A stretch of DNA of 64,000 bases. Source: an uncultured bacterium. Its GTDB lineage: Bacteria > Verrucomicrobiota > Verrucomicrobiia > Limisphaerales > UBA11358. The translations under genes were made by a program, and so were the position numbers. The stretch spans positions 449,820-513,819 of the forward strand of contig CAVPSH010000001.1 of the NCBI GenBank assembly GCA_963708305.1. Reading direction: 5' to 3'. Numbering within the stretch: position 1 is the stretch's first letter; every line of letters begins with the position of its first letter. The notes under the pieces were generated by a model that was given only the letters and a program-made list of their open reading frames with translations, ran no database searches and was not told where the DNA came from. Positions 3,213-48,635 of this stretch are shown piece after piece.

Positions 3213-4589
3213 TTAAAATTTCCACATCAGGTCGGCCATGGCATGGATGGCCGATGAACCGGCACCGGCGGGATTCGTATTGCCAATCATGCTGTTGACG
3301 TAGCAGGTGAAGGAAAAAAACAAGGCGTCCGTCAACGCGTAGTCCGCCGTGAACAGGTGGCCTTTGACGTTGGTGCCGCCGGCGAAGCCCGCATTGTAGG
3401 TCAGGTTATCGTCGTTCACAATTTGGGCGAACCAGGCATTGGCGTCCAGCGATTCGTAACGATAGCCGACGTCCCAGGTGCCTTGCTTGCCCGCCTGACC
3501 GAAAATAATGCCGCCATAGAAACCTTCGTTCCCGCTGGGCGCGCCGCCTACGATGGCCCCGCCGGAACCGGGCGCGCCGGGATTGTTCAGGTATTCACCG
3601 ACGAGCTTGATGGGGAACGCACCCTTGTAAAGCGGGAAGCTGCCCAGCTTGTAAGTGACGCTGGCATCCACGACAATAGGGTTCAGGCTGTAAATGGGAT
3701 CGCCCGCGGCATTGACGGAGTTTCCCTTGTTGCCGTCGCCGGCGTTGGCCGTGGTAAGCTGGTCGCGATTGACAATGTCATAGGCCGCAACTCCTAGCGA
3801 ACTGGAAAGATGATCCGTCCAGTTGGCATTCCACGACGCCTGCGCACCGTAGAGAAACGACATGTTCTGGGCGGCTGAACCCGAATAGGCCAGGACAAAG
3901 CCCGCGCCGTTGACCGCCACGGAATTCCAGTCGTTGATTTTATAGGAAGCCTGCAGCGCGCCGCCTTCCGGCGTGTAATCCGGGTCGAACACCATCGGCG
4001 TTTCCTGAAATGGCTCGTCCATTTTTCCGATGGTTCCGGCCACCATCCAGGTGCCGTCGTTAATCGGCATCCATTTGCCATAGGCCGCATCCACATAAAT
4101 GAACTTCTTGGTGCCGTTGCCTTGCAGCGTGGTGTTGTTGGACACCGGGTTACCGCCCGCAGGACCGGCGGCGGTATTTGGGTCAGCGGAGCCCAACCGG
4201 AAGCCCACCTGCAAATCGTCTTTCATGTTGACCAGCAACCCCACGCGCAAGCGGTAGCGCAGGCGGATATTGTCTTCCTGGGCCGGGTTCGATGTCGTCC
4301 GTTCATCGAACCGTCCGCGGAAATCGCCGGACAATTTGTAACCGGTAATCCAGTCCGGCATCGGGAAGCGGGAATTCATCGCCTGGTTGAAATCAGCGAC
4401 GGAATTGGTCGTGTTCTCGGCCTTCAGTTCGTCCGCTTCATTCGGCGTAAGAATGCCTTTTTGTTCCAGTTTGTTGAGCAGGTTGTCCACGGACGATTGC
4501 GCGTGGCTGTTGGGAGTTAAAGCCATCAGTGCGGCAGCACCGGCAAAGATGGCAACCTTGGTGGTCTGGTGATTTTTGTTTTTTTTCAT
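3213..4589 (-). CDS. outer-membrane porin heading the pst cluster (phosphate-selective porin candidate)
   Basis: 458 aa with a signal peptide (ALMALTPNSHAQ), beta-barrel-like Gly/Asn/Tyr-rich composition and a C-terminal aromatic residue (DLMWKF). It sits directly upstream of pstS on the same strand. Confidence 0.6.
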   Translation of the reverse strand: MKKNKNHQTTKVAIFAGAAALMALTPNSHAQSSVDNLLNKLEQKGILTPNEADELKAENTTNSVADFNQAMNSRFPMPDWITGYKLSGDFRGRFDERTTSNPAQEDNIRLRYRLRVGLLVNMKDDLQVGFRLGSADPNTAAGPAGGNPVSNNTTLQGNGTKKFIYVDAAYGKWMPINDGTWMVAGTIGKMDEPFQETPMVFDPDYTPEGGALQASYKINDWNSVAVNGAGFVLAYSGSAAQNMSFLYGAQASWNANWTDHLSSSLGVAAYDIVNRDQLTTANAGDGNKGNSVNAAGDPIYSLNPIVVDASVTYKLGSFPLYKGAFPIKLVGEYLNNPGAPGSGGAIVGGAPSGNEGFYGGIIFGQAGKQGTWDVGYRYESLDANAWFAQIVNDDNLTYNAGFAGGTNVKGHLFTADYALTDALFFSFTCYVNSMIGNTNPAGAGSSAIHAMADLMWKF

Positions 4590-4622
4590 GGTTGTCGTTT
4601 GCTAAGCGAGGGCAGGCTGAAG

Positions 4623-4709
4623 CAACATTGTTACAAACAAACGGAGGCAATGTTACAATTGCGTGACAAGACAACATTGTCACGACTCCGTGTGGATAAT
4701 GTTACAACG
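4623..4709. promoter_or_regulatory. four direct repeats (A)ATTGTTACAA upstream of the porin gene; candidate PhoB-type operator
   Basis: TGTTACA at 4629, 4651 and 4700, plus TGTCACG at 4678 (spacings 22, 27 and 22 bp). These lie 40-117 nt upstream of the porin ATG at 4589. Confidence 0.4.
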
Positions 4710-4836: not shown

Positions 4837-5391
4837 TTACATCGCGCGGAACGCGGTCAGGCCCAGCAGCAAAATGAAAATCGCAAACGCCAGCCGGATG
4901 GTGCTGGTCACACGGATGCGCGCTTCGGTGGCCGTGGCCCAATTCACCAAATCACGCAGCTTCCACGGCCAGACCGTGAAACACATGCCCGCGACGACGA
5001 GCAGGTAGGCCCACGCTTGAATCACCCACACCCAATGGGTCTGGCCCAGATGCGGCCGGCCCGTGTCCACCATCAATTTCGCCAGTAGCAACGCGACGAC
5101 TGCCAGTCCGCGCACGGCCAGAAAGTCCTGGATAAAGATACAACTCAAAACGCCCACCGCCACGAAACCCATCATCATCGCCGGTTTGAAGGCCGCGAAA
5201 TCGGAGACCGACTCGTTGTGGACGTTCCAGACAAACCAGGCCGTGCCGAGCAACATGAGCGCGACGCCGAGCGGCAGGTTGCGCGGAAATTTGCGGGCCG
5301 CCGCCGCGAATTGCTGCGGCCGGGTGATGCCATAAACCTGCGGCACGGCCATGCCGAGTCCGAGCACAATGGACAGTAACGACAATTTCAT
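4837..5391 (-). CDS. polytopic membrane protein, unknown function
   Basis: 184-aa ORF with about 6 hydrophobic segments. It matches no motif I recognise. Confidence 0.5.
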   Translation of the reverse strand: MKLSLLSIVLGLGMAVPQVYGITRPQQFAAAARKFPRNLPLGVALMLLGTAWFVWNVHNESVSDFAAFKPAMMMGFVAVGVLSCIFIQDFLAVRGLAVVALLLAKLMVDTGRPHLGQTHWVWVIQAWAYLLVVAGMCFTVWPWKLRDLVNWATATEARIRVTSTIRLAFAIFILLLGLTAFRAM

Positions 5392-5497
5392 CGCGGGGAA
5401 TTAAACATGAACTCCGACAAATCGCGAGCAAATTGACACGGAAAAATTCAATCTGGACACTTCATGTTGCCAGACATAGGGTCGCCGCATAAGAACG

Positions 5498-5815
5498 ATG
5501 AACAAGAGCAAAGAGCAAATGTTGAAAGAGGTAAAGTCGCCCGAACACTTTGGATGGGTGAGGAAATGGAAGGACAAGGGCGAGATCCTAAAGTCACGAA
5601 TAAAGAAGAGAGTCGCAATTGCAGAGGAGGATTATCCTCAAATTAACACTGTTGATTTGATAGAGTTCGTGGAAGAGAAAAGGTGTGAGATCAGATTCGG
5701 GTATTACACAATAGACCGAAACGGAAAATGGTATTGGGGGCAATATTGTCCTTGTTATCCCAAAAGAAACCTCCGGCAACTTCTCAAAGAGGCAAAAAAG
5801 GCCAGAATACTTTGA
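5498..5815 (+). CDS. small Lys/Glu-rich hypothetical protein in a low-GC patch
   Basis: 105-aa ORF (MNKSKEQMLKEVKSPEHFGW...). The local sequence is visibly AT-richer than its flanks. Confidence 0.4.
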   Translation: MNKSKEQMLKEVKSPEHFGWVRKWKDKGEILKSRIKKRVAIAEEDYPQINTVDLIEFVEEKRCEIRFGYYTIDRNGKWYWGQYCPCYPKRNLRQLLKEAKKARIL

Positions 5816-5856
5816 CAGTCTCGCTATTCCACAATCGCCGGGTCGCCACAAAACTC

Positions 5857-5945
5857 GTAGCCGCCGACGTGCAGTCGGCGCCAACTTCTCGATTTAAAAC
5901 CCCCCGCCAAAAAAAATTTAGCGCGGACTATACGTCCACGGCTAC
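5857..5945. repeat. REPIN doublet (family A), left of RAYT
   Basis: GTAGCCGCCGACgtgcaGTCGGCGCC ... TAGCGCGGACtataCGTCCACGGCTAC: two inverted REP hairpins. About 85 percent identical to 6621-6709 in the same orientation. Confidence 0.8.
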
Positions 5946-5949
5946 GGCG

Positions 5950-6576
5950 TCATTCCATTTCGCGCGGCGGCAGAATGCGTTTCTCAATATCCGGCTTGCG
6001 CACAACAAAGTAATGTTCCCAAAACCACGGCCAGTAACCGGGTTCGAATGGATTCGCCCGCGGATAGCCAGGGATCACCGCGCCGAGAAACGGCCAGTTC
6101 TCCGGTGATTTGACCAAGCCACCTTTGAATGGATTGAGCATGACATAATCCGCGCACGCGACGCTGAATGCGTGTCGTTGCCGTTCTTCGGCGGTGAGCA
6201 CATGGTCATGCGCCTGATGTTGGAATTTCGCCGGCTTGAGAAACGAACCGATTTGAGCGCGAAGAAACTTGATACCGTTGCGCTGGTCGGTGTCGCGATG
6301 GAGCCCCATCCAAACCAGGTGAATGTGGTCGGGCATAAGGCAATAAGCCGGACAAAGCAATCCTTCACGTGCCGCGGTATGAAGCATGATTTCCCGAACA
6401 GTGGCGTGGAAACGATCGGTCAGCCGGCCTTGCTGACGATGGGAAACCGGCATGGTCCAGAACACAACAGCGTCGCCCTGGTAGAATTCGCGCTTCAGCC
6501 TCGGCAGGTAATGAGAAAAATCTGACCGCGGTTTTCGTTCGGAAACGATGGGAGCATCGAAGGGTTCAAGGCTCAC
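5950..6576 (-). CDS. REP-associated tyrosine transposase (RAYT, IS200-like Y1 transposase)
   Basis: 208 aa with a GTG start. It has the HUH motif in CLMPDHIHLVW and the catalytic Tyr region CADYVMLNPFKGGLV, and is flanked by REP hairpins. Confidence 0.8.
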   Translation of the reverse strand: MSLEPFDAPIVSERKPRSDFSHYLPRLKREFYQGDAVVFWTMPVSHRQQGRLTDRFHATVREIMLHTAAREGLLCPAYCLMPDHIHLVWMGLHRDTDQRNGIKFLRAQIGSFLKPAKFQHQAHDHVLTAEERQRHAFSVACADYVMLNPFKGGLVKSPENWPFLGAVIPGYPRANPFEPGYWPWFWEHYFVVRKPDIEKRILPPREME

Positions 6577-6588
6577 GACGGGATTTTG

Positions 6589-6613
6589 GCGCGAACTGAC
6601 GTTCGCGGCTACA
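6589..6613. repeat. single REP hairpin (family A)
   Basis: GCGCGAACTGACGTTCGCGGCTACA resembles the second half of the REPIN doublets. Confidence 0.6.
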
Positions 6614-6620
6614 CTTTTTT

Positions 6621-6709
6621 GTAGCCGCCGACGTTAGTCGGCGCTGACTTCCCGTTTTGAAAAATCCCCGCCCAAATGATTTTAGCGCGGACTGACGTCC
6701 ATGGCTACA
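6621..6709. repeat. REPIN doublet (family A), right of RAYT; supplies the miaB stop codon
   Basis: GTAGCCGCCGACgttaGTCGGCGCTGA ... TAGCGCGGACtgacGTCCATGGCTACA. The miaB TAG (6707-6705) lies inside the terminal GCTACA. Confidence 0.8.
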
Positions 6710-8162
6710 GGTTCACAATCGCCGGGTCGCCGTAAAGAGTGAAGGAGCCGGCGCGGATGATTTTTACGTCCATGAGCCGGCCGCGATGCCGTTCCGAGCC
6801 GTCAAATACCACAATCCGGTTACAACGCGTTCGACCGGTCATTCGCGCCGGGTTTTTCTTGCTCGGCCCTTCCACCAGAATCTGCATCCGCCGCCCGATC
6901 AATGCGCTGTACTTGCGTTTGGCGATTTCGTTGATGACTTCCAACAGGCGCTGGTTGCGTTCCTCGCGAATTTCTTGCGGTACCTGGTCCGGCATTCCGG
7001 CGGCGGGCGTATCGCGGCGCTGCGAGTATTTAAAAATGTACGCCTGGTCAAATTCCACCTCGCGCGCGAGCGACAACGTCTCCTCGAAATCCTTCCCGGT
7101 TTCGCCCGGAAAGCCGACGATGAAGTCGGTACTGACGCCGATTTGAGGTTTGGCAGCACGCAGTTTTTCGATGATGCCAAGGTAACGTTCGCGCGTGTAG
7201 CCGCGGTGCATCAGTTTCAGCACGCGATTGCTGCCGCTCTGGACAGGCAGATGCGCGCTCTCGACGAGTTTCGGCATCCGCGCGTAAGCTTCAATCAAGT
7301 CATCGCCGTAACCCTTTGGATGCGGCGAGGTGAACCGGATGCGTTCCAGTCCCTCGATTTCGTGAACGGCTTCAAGGAGCTGAACAAACGGAGATTTCCT
7401 GGTCGAGGGTCGAGGGTCGAGGGTCGAGGGTTGGAAATTGTTTGGCTCTCGACTCTCGACTCTCGACTCTCGACTGCTTTGGCTGTGTTTTCCGTAACTC
7501 GTCACAATCTGGCCGAGCAGGGTGATTTCCTTCACACCCTGCGCCACCAACTGTCGGCATTCGGCCACAATGTCGGAAATGCCGCGGCTGCGCTCCTCGC
7601 CGCGCGTATAAGGCACAATGCAAAACGTGCAGTATTGATTGCAGCCCTGCATGATGCTGACAAACGCAGTGACCGGTAGCGGCGGTCTATGACCGTCGCC
7701 ATTTCCACCGCCATTTTTCGCACCGTTTCCGTAAAGCAGATGCTCGCGAATGGTCGCTTCGCTCCCCTGCTCTTCCGCCACATCCACGATTTTTTCCGCC
7801 CTCCCGGCGATGATTTCGTCGAGACAATCCGCCGCGCGATGAAATTTCTGCGTGCCAAGAACCAAATCCACGTCTGGCAACAGGTCAATCAATTCCTGTC
7901 CCCGGCTTTGGGCCATGCACCCCATGAACCCGAGGACGACATGGGGACGGCTGCGGCGGATGTCCGCGGCGAGGTTTTCCATTTTCCGGAGCGCCTTTTG
8001 TTCCGCGAGATCGCGCACGCTGCACGTGTTGAGCAGGATCACATCCGCCGCGGTTTCAGACGGCGCGAGCGTGTAGCCCTTGGCCACGAGTTGTGCGGCG
8101 ACGGCTTCGCTGTCGCGCTCATTCATCTGGCAACCGTAGGTTTTGATATAGACGCTCGGCAT
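6705..8162 (-). CDS. miaB: tRNA-i6A37 methylthiotransferase MiaB
   Basis: MPSVYIKTYGCQMNERDSE, the radical-SAM motif CNQYCTFCIVPYTRG, then RIRFTSPHP and a TRAM-like C-terminus. The start is set at 8162 because the longer ORF extension runs through a REP hairpin. Confidence 0.9.
   Translation of the reverse strand: MPSVYIKTYGCQMNERDSEAVAAQLVAKGYTLAPSETAADVILLNTCSVRDLAEQKALRKMENLAADIRRSRPHVVLGFMGCMAQSRGQELIDLLPDVDLVLGTQKFHRAADCLDEIIAGRAEKIVDVAEEQGSEATIREHLLYGNGAKNGGGNGDGHRPPLPVTAFVSIMQGCNQYCTFCIVPYTRGEERSRGISDIVAECRQLVAQGVKEITLLGQIVTSYGKHSQSSRESRVESREPNNFQPSTLDPRPSTRKSPFVQLLEAVHEIEGLERIRFTSPHPKGYGDDLIEAYARMPKLVESAHLPVQSGSNRVLKLMHRGYTRERYLGIIEKLRAAKPQIGVSTDFIVGFPGETGKDFEETLSLAREVEFDQAYIFKYSQRRDTPAAGMPDQVPQEIREERNQRLLEVINEIAKRKYSALIGRRMQILVEGPSKKNPARMTGRTRCNRIVVFDGSERHRGRLMDVKIIRAGSFTLYGDPAIVNL
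7401..7475. repeat. 75-bp heptad-repeat palindrome inside the miaB coding sequence
   Basis: (GGTCGAG)x4, a 15-nt loop, then (CTCTCGA)x4. It translates in frame as SRESRVESREPNNFQPSTLDPRPST. Confidence 0.9.
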
Positions 8163-31698: not shown

Positions 31699-33153
31699 AT
31701 GCAACCATTCGATTATGACGTGGCGATTCTGGGCGGCGGCAGTGCCGGCTATGCGGCAGCCCGTACCGCGGCCAGCGCGGGTTTGAAAACCGTCGTCGTC
31801 GAGGGTGGCGAGAAGGTCGGCGGATTGTGCATCCTGCGCGGTTGCATGCCCACCAAGGCCTTGCTCTACGCCGCGGAAGTGATGCATCTGGCCAGCCACC
31901 CCGAACCGTGGGGCATTCGCGCCGGAAGGGTCGGCTTCGATCTCAAGAAGGTGATGGCGCAAAAAAACAGGCTGATCAAGGATTTTGCCGATCATCGCGT
32001 GAAGCAGCTCAATGCCGGAAAGTTCGAATTCATCCGGGCCAACGCGCGATTTGTGGATGCGCACACAGTGGAATTGAATTCTCTTTGTAGCAGCGGACGT
32101 AAGTCCGCTCATTCTTCAAAATTGGAAGTTGAACAGAGCCGACTGACGTCGGCTGCTACACTCCGATCAAAAAACTTCATCATCGCCACCGGTTCCACCA
32201 TTGCGCCGTCGCCGCTGCCGCAACTCAACGAAACAGGGTTCATCACCAGCGACGATGCGCTGGTGCTCAAGCGGCTGCCGAAGTCGCTGATTGTTCTCGG
32301 CGGCGGCGCGGTGGCGTGCGAGTTTGCCCAGTTTTTCGAGCGCTTCGGAGTCAAGGTCACGCTCATCCAGCGCAGTGAACATATTTTGAAGGAATTTGAT
32401 TCCGATGCGGCAGCGGAGATCGAAAAGGTCTTCCGGAGGGAAGGCATGAAAGTTTTTACCGGCACCAGGCTCGTGGATGCGAAGCGAAAGGGGACACTTA
32501 AGACTGTTGCGTTTGAACACGAAGGGAAAACGGTTGCTGTTTCCGCCGAGGAAATCTTGTTTGCACTCGGGCGCGTGCCCAATACGGCGTCGTTGGATCT
32601 CGAAAACGCCGGCGTGAAAACCGACAACGGGCGCATCATCACGAACGAGCTGATGCAAACCAGCGTGCCGCACATTTTCGCCGGAGGCGATTGCACCGGG
32701 CCGCATGAAATCGTTCACATTGCCGTCCAGCAGGGCGAAATTGCGGCGCACAACATCACCAATCCAAGCGCGCTGCGCCGGATGGATTATCGGTTGCTGA
32801 TTTCGGTTGTGTTCACCGAACCGCAGGTGGCCTTTGTGGGTTTGACGGAGAAGGAGGCAAAAGCGCGCGGTATTCCTTATCTGGCGGCGAGTTATCCGTT
32901 CAACGACCACGGCAAATCACTCATCATGGAGGCCAAGGACGGTTTCGTAAAATTGCTGGCGGATCCGAACTCCGGCGAAATCATCGGCGGCGCCTGTATC
33001 GGTCCGGTGGGCGGCGAACTCATTCACGAGATTGTCGCAGCGATGGCCAAACGCATGACCGTTCACGAACTGGCTGCAATGCCGCATTATCACCCGACGC
33101 TGGCGGAGATCTGGACCTATCCGGCGGAGGAACTGGCGGAGAAAGTCCTGTGA
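31699..33153 (+). CDS. class I pyridine nucleotide-disulfide oxidoreductase (Lpd/MerA-like flavoprotein) carrying a 25-aa REPIN-encoded insert
   Basis: It has the FAD motif DVAILGGGSAGYAAA, the redox disulfide GGLCILRGCMPTK, the NAD motif LIVLGGGAVACEFA, and a C-terminal HYHPTLAE. Confidence 0.85.
   Translation: MQPFDYDVAILGGGSAGYAAARTAASAGLKTVVVEGGEKVGGLCILRGCMPTKALLYAAEVMHLASHPEPWGIRAGRVGFDLKKVMAQKNRLIKDFADHRVKQLNAGKFEFIRANARFVDAHTVELNSLCSSGRKSAHSSKLEVEQSRLTSAATLRSKNFIIATGSTIAPSPLPQLNETGFITSDDALVLKRLPKSLIVLGGGAVACEFAQFFERFGVKVTLIQRSEHILKEFDSDAAAEIEKVFRREGMKVFTGTRLVDAKRKGTLKTVAFEHEGKTVAVSAEEILFALGRVPNTASLDLENAGVKTDNGRIITNELMQTSVPHIFAGGDCTGPHEIVHIAVQQGEIAAHNITNPSALRRMDYRLLISVVFTEPQVAFVGLTEKEAKARGIPYLAASYPFNDHGKSLIMEAKDGFVKLLADPNSGEIIGGACIGPVGGELIHEIVAAMAKRMTVHELAAMPHYHPTLAEIWTYPAEELAEKVL
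32086..32160. repeat. REPIN doublet (family A) inside a coding sequence, in frame
   Basis: TGTAGCAGCGGACgtaaGTCCGCTC ... CAGAGCCGACtgacGTCGGCTGCTACA. It is 75 bp, starts on a codon boundary and translates as CSSGRKSAHSSKLEVEQSRLTSAAT. Confidence 0.9.
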
Positions 33154-48564: not shown

Positions 48565-48635
48565 GTAGCAGCCGATGTGAATCGGCTCTGATTTCGCCGG
48601 TGGGAGTATGGAGCGGACTCACGTCCACTGCTACA
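48565..48635. repeat. REPIN doublet (family A)
   Basis: GTAGCAGCCGAtgtgaATCGGCTCTGA ... GAGCGGACtcacGTCCACTGCTACA. Confidence 0.8.

Follow-up and report, generated by a model that had tools for sequence, protein, structure and literature searches.

A RAYT module at the miaB stop codon of an uncultured Verrucomicrobiota bacterium is bracketed by a decaying duplicate of the gene end

We analyzed a 64-kb stretch of DNA from an uncultured Verrucomicrobiota bacterium (referred to as the window) in which a gene for a repetitive extragenic palindromic (REP)-associated tyrosine transposase (RAYT), together with the REPs that flank it, lies directly behind the tRNA methylthiotransferase gene miaB and is bracketed by a direct repeat of the miaB 3' end. 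This arrangement is the product of one event that the window shares with its relatives; the outer copy of the gene end is a relic, empty sites with a single miaB end are present in relatives, and the repeat is not a dispersed one. The bracketing duplication is unusual and apparently undescribed, and it is most likely an old scar and not a transposase product. As for its origin, we hold with moderate confidence that the module arrived in one old, shared insertion and that the duplication stems from host recombination or repair in a hot spot next to miaB.

The 18-mer CACAATCGCCGGGTCGCC has two exact matches on the plus strand of the window, at 5830-5847 and 6714-6731, and these are still its only matches when up to two mismatches are allowed, with 0.05 expected by chance; none of 100 shuffles contained it twice. 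A fainter likeness continues past the 18-mer in both directions (5826-5853 versus 6709-6737, with TTT ahead of the core and AA behind), which agrees with the repeat of about 30 nucleotides (nt) seen in the relatives described below. The 866 bp that separate the two copies (5848-6713) are made up of a REPIN (a REP doublet), a RAYT-like gene, a lone REP and a second REPIN, and no other open reading frame (ORF), integrase or DDE gene was found in this block. The features are:

5826..5853, minus strand: distal miaB-end copy, a non-coding relic containing the exact 18-mer 5830-5847
5857-5881, plus strand: REP1, in the left REPIN (5857..5945)
5921-5945, minus strand: REP2, in the left REPIN
5950..6576, minus strand: intact RAYT-like Y1 HUH transposase gene of 208 aa, the only copy in the window
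6588-6612, minus strand: REP3, a lone REP head to head with REP4 at a distance of 8 nt, absent from the initial annotation
6621-6645, plus strand: REP4, in the right REPIN (6621..6708)
6684-6708, minus strand: REP5, in the right REPIN, with the head GTAGCC
6709..6737, minus strand: proximal miaB-end copy, working, encoding LYGDPAIVN(L) and containing the exact 18-mer 6714-6731
6705..8162, minus strand: miaB, with Pfam UPF0004, Radical_SAM and TRAM domains

The miaB gene, whose homologs are 77-91% identical (120 among the matches listed), ends in ...GGC GAC CCG GCG ATT GTG AAC CTG TAG, of which the final AAC CTG TAG overlaps the head of REP5. Specifically, the TAG stop (6705-6707) lies within the REP5 head GTAGCC (6703-6708), and this head donates the G of the Leu codon CTG as well as the TAG itself. 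Read on the miaB-sense strand, the distal copy starts 3 nt past the REP1 tail GGCTAC. The two REPINs have the same orientation, are ~83-87% identical to each other and both fold into long hairpins (z = -2.7 and -5.0); REPs or REPINs also flank the RAYT gene in relatives. The 208-aa ORF carries the HUH motif PDHIHLVW and the Tyr motif ADYVMLNP, which are invariant in 20 homologs and align to the catalytic HUH and Tyr of E. coli TnpA-REP (PDB 4ER8), a structure that a profile of the 20 homologs matches at E = 6.5e-7. The NCBIfam model REP_Tyr_transpos (NF047646) matches the ORF at E = 3e-15 over model positions 3-145 of 146, with a score of 56.3 bits against a cut-off of 80, and Pfam Y1_Tnp matches at E = 0.015, which is under the gathering score; at gathering score the ORF has no Pfam match. 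A total of 945 homologs form its family, nearly all of them from Verrucomicrobiota metagenomes and some named RayT by the JGI, with the nearest being 83% identical in a collection of 5.8 billion proteins. By these matches, the ORF would be a divergent Verrucomicrobiota member of the known RAYT family. The initial annotation had put forward the two 18-mer copies, the RAYT with its HUH and Tyr motifs, a pair of about 85% identical REPINs in the same orientation and a right-hand copy that encodes the miaB C-terminus with a stop donated by the REPIN, all of which stand.

We compared the window with loci that carry a RAYT at miaB (L001-L017 and L070, from 11 species, plus L136). Every RAYT ortholog at least ~77% identical to that of the window is located between miaB and a conserved 184-aa gene, and at every miaB-linked RAYT locus a second miaB-end copy is found past the REP cluster, always 3 nt after the last GGCTAC; L136 is an additional RAYT locus with such a distal copy. 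We found no relative with the RAYT at miaB that has the same arrangement without the duplicated gene end. The distal junction has the consensus GGCTAC-RAA-yTTTry-GGCGACCCGGCsATTGTGAAyyT, and the miaB-end repeat in the 11 further species is ~30 nt long (29-33), reading CTyTAC-GGCGACCCGGCsATTGTGAAyyT. This would place the original duplication at ~29-33 nt, with the 18-mer of the window as its best-kept core, and not at the 18 nt first proposed. The miaB-linked RAYTs form one clade, outside of which fall the RAYTs of three other loci (L018, L019 and L026). Note that the closest RAYT in the protein collection is 83% identical, so that a close pair of occupied and empty sites is absent from this comparison, and that an exact metagenome search for the distal junction of the window gave no match.

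The distal copies also reveal where the module entered. In L013, L012 and L001 the relic lies next to the conserved downstream motif GAGTTGGG and reads GTG AAC CTC TGA, which would make VNL-stop the original terminus and place the entry of the module after GTGAAyyT. Other orthologous relics read VNL-stop or VNI-stop as well (GTGAACCTCTGA, GTGAATTTGTAA and GTGAATATTTAA), and the C-termini of miaB homologs read ...IVNL or ...I(L/V)(E/D). Thus, the GDPAIVE-stop of the left copy, first taken for the ancestral terminus, is probably not ancestral. The relic variant TTTGTGGCGACC is common to the window and L015, and this sharing would make their relics orthologous. In addition, the GGAAT of the distal copy of the window, which abuts a low-GC insert, also occurs in the relics of L091 and L094.

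The identity between proximal and distal copies is 0.788 within genomes and 0.786 between genomes (permutation p = 0.46), which rules out concerted evolution of the copies or repeated re-insertion at miaB. Proximal (coding) copies have a mean identity of 0.91 among themselves versus 0.73 for the distal copies, which show indels and truncations. These values fit one old event and two copies that have not evolved in concert, where the distal one is a decaying relic and the other is kept by coding selection. The notion of a recent event and a mobile RAYT is therefore not upheld: the same junction occurs in all 11 further species, the RAYTs are a single clade and the copies show no co-evolution within genomes. 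A separate role of the distal copy, for instance as an RNA element or as a site for guiding or cleavage by the RAYT, would account for its being recognizable in 12 of 12 species with a miaB-linked RAYT (window included) at a constant 3 nt from the REP tail. However, the divergence of distal copies (73% identical, against 91% for coding copies), their loss in several lineages and the absence of the miaB-end core beside the same REP type elsewhere (>60 other RAYT or REP loci) make such a function very improbable. At two of the loci, the RAYT module is followed downstream by an array of a miaB-end copy, a REPIN and another miaB-end copy (L001, 6843-6990; L012, 4832-5095), giving three gene-end copies per locus.

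Empty sites, which the initial annotation had proposed to look for, were found in three relatives that have a single miaB end (L095, L092 and L150). In L095 the gene ends AAT TTG TGA and is directly followed by a convergent hydrolase gene, in L092 it ends ...DILD-stop and in L150 ...IVG-stop, then GTTGG. The AAT TTG TGA of L095 and the AAC CTC TGA of the distal relic in L013 both place the insertion point after GTGAAyyT. These single-copy ends show that the block was inserted at the miaB stop and that a target duplication came with it. By miaB sequence, the window groups with L090, L091, L092, L094, L095 and L149, and it is the only RAYT carrier among them. In L149 a relic miaB end is fused to a relic REP of family A, the type that flanks the RAYT (GCGATCCGGCGAAAGCGAACCTGT-GGCTGCGGACGTCAGTCCGTGCC), which suggests that the junction was once present in the miaB clade of the window and was later lost; the distal copy is likewise gone from several lineages.

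These observations would be accounted for by a single ancient insertion of a REP-bounded RAYT module, placed exactly at the miaB stop and after ...GTGAAyyT, in an ancestor shared by a group of Limisphaerales-like Verrucomicrobiota. Its arrival would have duplicated the last 29-33 nt of miaB. The miaB-attached copy would have stayed under coding selection, with the REP head GTAGCC completing the Leu codon and supplying the TAG, while the copy beyond the module would have lost its function and slowly decayed, the 18-mer being the part that is still identical in the window. From then on the module would have been passed down at this site as an intact, single-copy resident RAYT with its REPINs, and would have been lost or replaced in most of the closest relatives of the window.

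The same gene end is also duplicated around cargo that has no RAYT. In L090 a toxin-antitoxin-like insert of two ORFs lies between two miaB ends (4937-5560). The duplicate there covers 69 nt at 91% identity and extends to ~85 nt; it is identical over the first 36 nt and then has six differences, all of them synonymous, with the frame intact. This mosaic points to allelic recombination, the copies having presumably accumulated their differences in separate lineages while both were functional genes. In L091 the cargo is another palindromic element, of GTAGG type, and the relic behind it is significant (score 19, higher than in any of 1000 shuffles), and in L094 and L149 a REPIN of a third family (family C) lies between miaB-end copies, with the L149 relic then followed by the family-A REP relic. 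Around non-RAYT cargo the miaB-end duplications span 24 to 85 nt, and their left borders vary (0, -6, -18 and -60 nt relative to GGCGACC). A further locus, L007, matches L014 at 100% identity until ~125 nt ahead of the miaB stop and, from ~68 nt ahead of the stop onward, matches L004 at 100% identity, which would make it either a natural recombinant or an assembly chimera. The core of the miaB end was found only at miaB loci in 727 kb of sequence compared. Together with the window search, this excludes the origin of the 18-mer from a longer dispersed repeat, which the initial annotation had named as a concern, and, with the absence of the core beside the same REP type at >60 other loci, it also rules out that the miaB-end sequence is part of a mobile REP element (as an IS608-like left linker with TTTAC cleavage sites).

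Our preferred reading is that the duplication would have been made by host recombination or repair at the time of integration, and not by a programmed staggered cut of the transposase. Either a fragment or circle already bearing the miaB end may have integrated, or the ends may have been joined illegitimately with the help of homology, and the interval from miaB to the 184-aa gene would be a hot spot for such events; an excised circle, if formed, would carry the junction of GGCTACGAG with TTTTGT... We favor a host origin because unrelated cargo is enclosed by duplicates of this gene end whose borders vary, because one of the duplicates (L090) is a clear allelic mosaic and because REPIN insertions elsewhere leave no repeats. 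Thus, of the earlier proposal that the REPIN-RAYT-REPIN unit is a discrete insertion with a target duplication, the insertion and duplication are borne out by the single-copy ends, but an origin from the transposase is not required, since duplications of 24-85 nt flank non-RAYT cargo at the same locus. Several points weigh against host recombination. The inserted block ends 0 and 3 nt from REP termini, and an unrelated RAYT module (L064, L063 and L097-99) likewise ends 3-8 nt from REP termini with a 14-19-nt target repeat; such REP-to-REP precision would be expected from RAYT mobilisation and not from random fragment ends. Cargo of REP type is present in three of the four independent miaB-end duplications. 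Homologous exchange cannot account for how the module first reached miaB, L007, being a short metagenome contig, may be a chimeric assembly, and in the miaB 3' end of the window itself no recombination junction is demonstrable after removal of the terminal codons.

The unrelated module just mentioned is one reason to consider the repeat a possible target-site duplication in the strict sense, created as the REP-bounded RAYT module moved by transposition in one piece. In L064 a RAYT that is 55% identical to that of the window is located between a DUF58 gene and a BatA-like gene, whose stop and start normally overlap (ATGA). Its REP-bounded module (3818-4678) is bracketed by a perfect 19-nt repeat, GTGGCGCGAGAAAGCTCAT, which covers the ATGA overlap plus codons 1-6 of the BatA-like gene, and the repeat is kept in the orthologs at 17/19 in L063 (3789-4677) and ~14/18 in L097-99. 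A hint of concerted evolution at this locus, seen with L063 and L064, became weaker after L097-99 were added. In L064, L063 and L098 an ORF of 281 codons, antisense to the RAYT, now begins at the displaced start codon.

On the transposition route, the RAYT, alone or with replication or repair, would put REP-to-REP single-stranded DNA into a gap or flap, and the adjoining 19-33 nt would be copied on both sides. In its favor, the two independent loci, miaB and DUF58/BatA (19/19, 17/19 and ~14/18 in its members), are laid out alike (copy, 0-8 nt, GTAGCC...GGCTAC, 3-6 nt, copy), the miaB-end copies of L091, L094 and L149 enclose REPIN-type cargo, and RAYT orthologs of ~76-83% identity are found at different loci, so that modules do relocate. 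Old repeats would also stay recognizable for long only where coding selection keeps one copy, as in both of these cases. Against it, no clean non-REP flanking repeat was found at >100 further RAYT loci, and the other REPINs in the window lack flanking repeats even though one of them lies inside a coding gene, where a repeat would persist. Moreover, the repeat length varies from 19 to ~33 nt, the non-REP cassette of L090 has the same kind of duplication, the arrays of L001 and L012 repeat the same junction and are better read as copies of the first, and the single-strand chemistry of IS200/IS605 elements yields no duplication (PMC2817692). We therefore regard it as possible but rather unlikely that RAYT modules, and perhaps REPINs, integrate as units and copy 19-33 nt of their target, which would be a long and variable duplication by a Y1 HUH system. 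Only if such target-copying integration is real, which we doubt, would miaB and DUF58/BatA be two fossil footprints of supposedly immobile RAYTs reaching new sites.

The CTAC(G) microhomology at the junction raises another explanation, in which slipped or template-switched replication, aided by the likeness of the REP tail GGCTAC(G) to CTCTAC(G) of miaB, copied the miaB end together with the module, and the second module was later removed by REPIN-REPIN recombination or RAYT excision, so that just the additional miaB end stayed behind. The arrays of L001 and L012 are what unequal exchange followed by internal REPIN-REPIN deletion would be expected to leave, and the direct orientation and ~85% identity of the flanking REPINs suit it as well. 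However, at least two rare steps are required, the 2-3 extra junction bases (RAA) go beyond what microhomology explains, and both the DUF58/BatA case and the L090 mosaic are left unexplained. We consider this order of events quite improbable.

In many respects the window resembles the described REPIN-RAYT systems (Nunvar 2010, PMC2817692; Bertels & Rainey 2011, PMC3116915; Bertels 2017, PMC5581495; E. coli TnpA-REP, PDB 4ER8). It has a Y1 HUH protein with the HUH and Tyr residues aligned to TnpA-REP, the gene is flanked by GTAG-headed hairpin REPs arranged in REPINs and is present in single copy in the window, and it occupies the same chromosomal position across species (window plus 11 species), which amounts to vertical inheritance. 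Flanking REPs, single-copy status and vertical inheritance are all described for RAYTs in these papers. The window differs in that its protein is divergent, in that the RAYT-flanking REP type is not seen elsewhere in the 64 kb, and in that a long direct repeat of its target gene's end encloses the module; in the RAYT and REPIN literature searched we found no mention of a direct target repeat around a RAYT.

Other systems match in part. The IS200/IS605 elements (IS608, ISDra2) share the transposase superfamily and subterminal hairpins and insert beside a short specific motif; the insertion described here is at ...TGT(A/G)A, similar to the GTAG head. However, they are multicopy and make no target duplication, and the RAYT and REPIN papers state that IS200/IS605 relatives make no larger target duplications, whereas the window carries one resident copy and a duplication of 29-33 nt. 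Integrative elements that use gene 3' ends (attL/attR) also have an insert flanked by a direct repeat of the gene 3' end, with a working terminus that comes partly from the insert and an old terminus displaced downstream, but the block at miaB lacks an integrase and measures only 866 bp, and the borders of the repeat differ between events. DDE transposons are characterized by a fixed duplication of 2-14 bp and terminal inverted repeats, unlike the DDE-free block here with repeats of 19 or ~30 nt, and of 24-85 nt around other cargo. Finally, the conserved miaB beside a variable interval with many cargos, the L090 mosaic and the sharp L007 breakpoint near the miaB end resemble homology-facilitated illegitimate recombination and integration hot spots between core genes; REP-precise ends like those of the RAYT block would not be expected from it. 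Homology-facilitated illegitimate recombination classically comes with deletions of recipient DNA and not with duplications.

RAYTs are regarded as domesticated and vertically inherited. The miaB locus offers a datable footprint of the arrival of one at a chromosomal site, with a REP-to-REP block, a ~30-nt duplication and empty sites, and DUF58/BatA is a second independent example. If the duplication were tied to RAYT chemistry, the view of Y1 HUH insertion would change. If it is a recombination by-product, which we hold likelier, a hot spot beside a conserved gene would build up nested relics of the gene end, and the takeover of a stop codon by a REP head would still be clearly illustrated.

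The surroundings of the module add two features:

5392..5829, plus strand: low-GC spacer (GC 0.44 versus 0.57 for the window) with a 105-aa ORF (5498-5815)
4837..5391, minus strand: conserved 184-aa gene, the far border of the variable interval from miaB in all relatives

The spacer borders the distal copy where the latter is truncated, and it is wedged between this relic and the 184-aa gene. Past the spacer, a porin gene is found in addition to the 184-aa gene. The 105-aa ORF of the spacer has no Pfam or PHROG match, and the spacer is probably a separate acquisition and more variable cargo of the hot spot.

Within the window no further family-A REPs were found beyond the RAYT flanks, only two REPINs of the related GTAGCAGC family, and no RAYT matching this family is present in it; a 70%-identical paralog, P0059 (source label 'src'), was among the protein-search matches. 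One of these REPINs (GTAGCAGCsGACGT..., 32087-32159) lies in frame inside a dihydrolipoyl-dehydrogenase-like ORF (31699-33153, plus strand), where it adds ~24 residues (aa 127-150) at a place where 1EBD has 4; the ORF is open and both of its Pfam domains are intact. The second is intergenic (48565-48634), and neither has flanking direct repeats.

For the survey of other RAYT loci, the borders of REP clusters were set by GTAGC plus a hairpin, as inverted 10-mers overshot and lost the positive controls. Several candidate flanking repeats were rejected: that of L045 is REPIN interior, that of L046 is a chance match inside ptsI, and those of L118, L123, L126 and others are REPIN or bacterial interspersed mosaic element (BIME) linkers. 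In L116 the RAYT module lies between two paralogous small genes (2182-2310 and 3607-3745, with ~130 nt shared), and the repeat there is gene paralogy.

A few minor observations concern individual loci. The L090 insert consists of a small antitoxin-like ORF and a PemK/MazF-like ORF, and its distal pseudo-end reads HRGQLMDVKITRAGSFTLYGDPAIENL-stop. In L007 a 60-nt stretch near the miaB 3' end (~3232-3290) matches neither L014 nor L004. Lastly, L028, L029 and L087 have very long tandem REPIN/BIME arrays on both sides of their RAYT genes, with up to 16 REPs in units of 100-180 nt at >90% identity.

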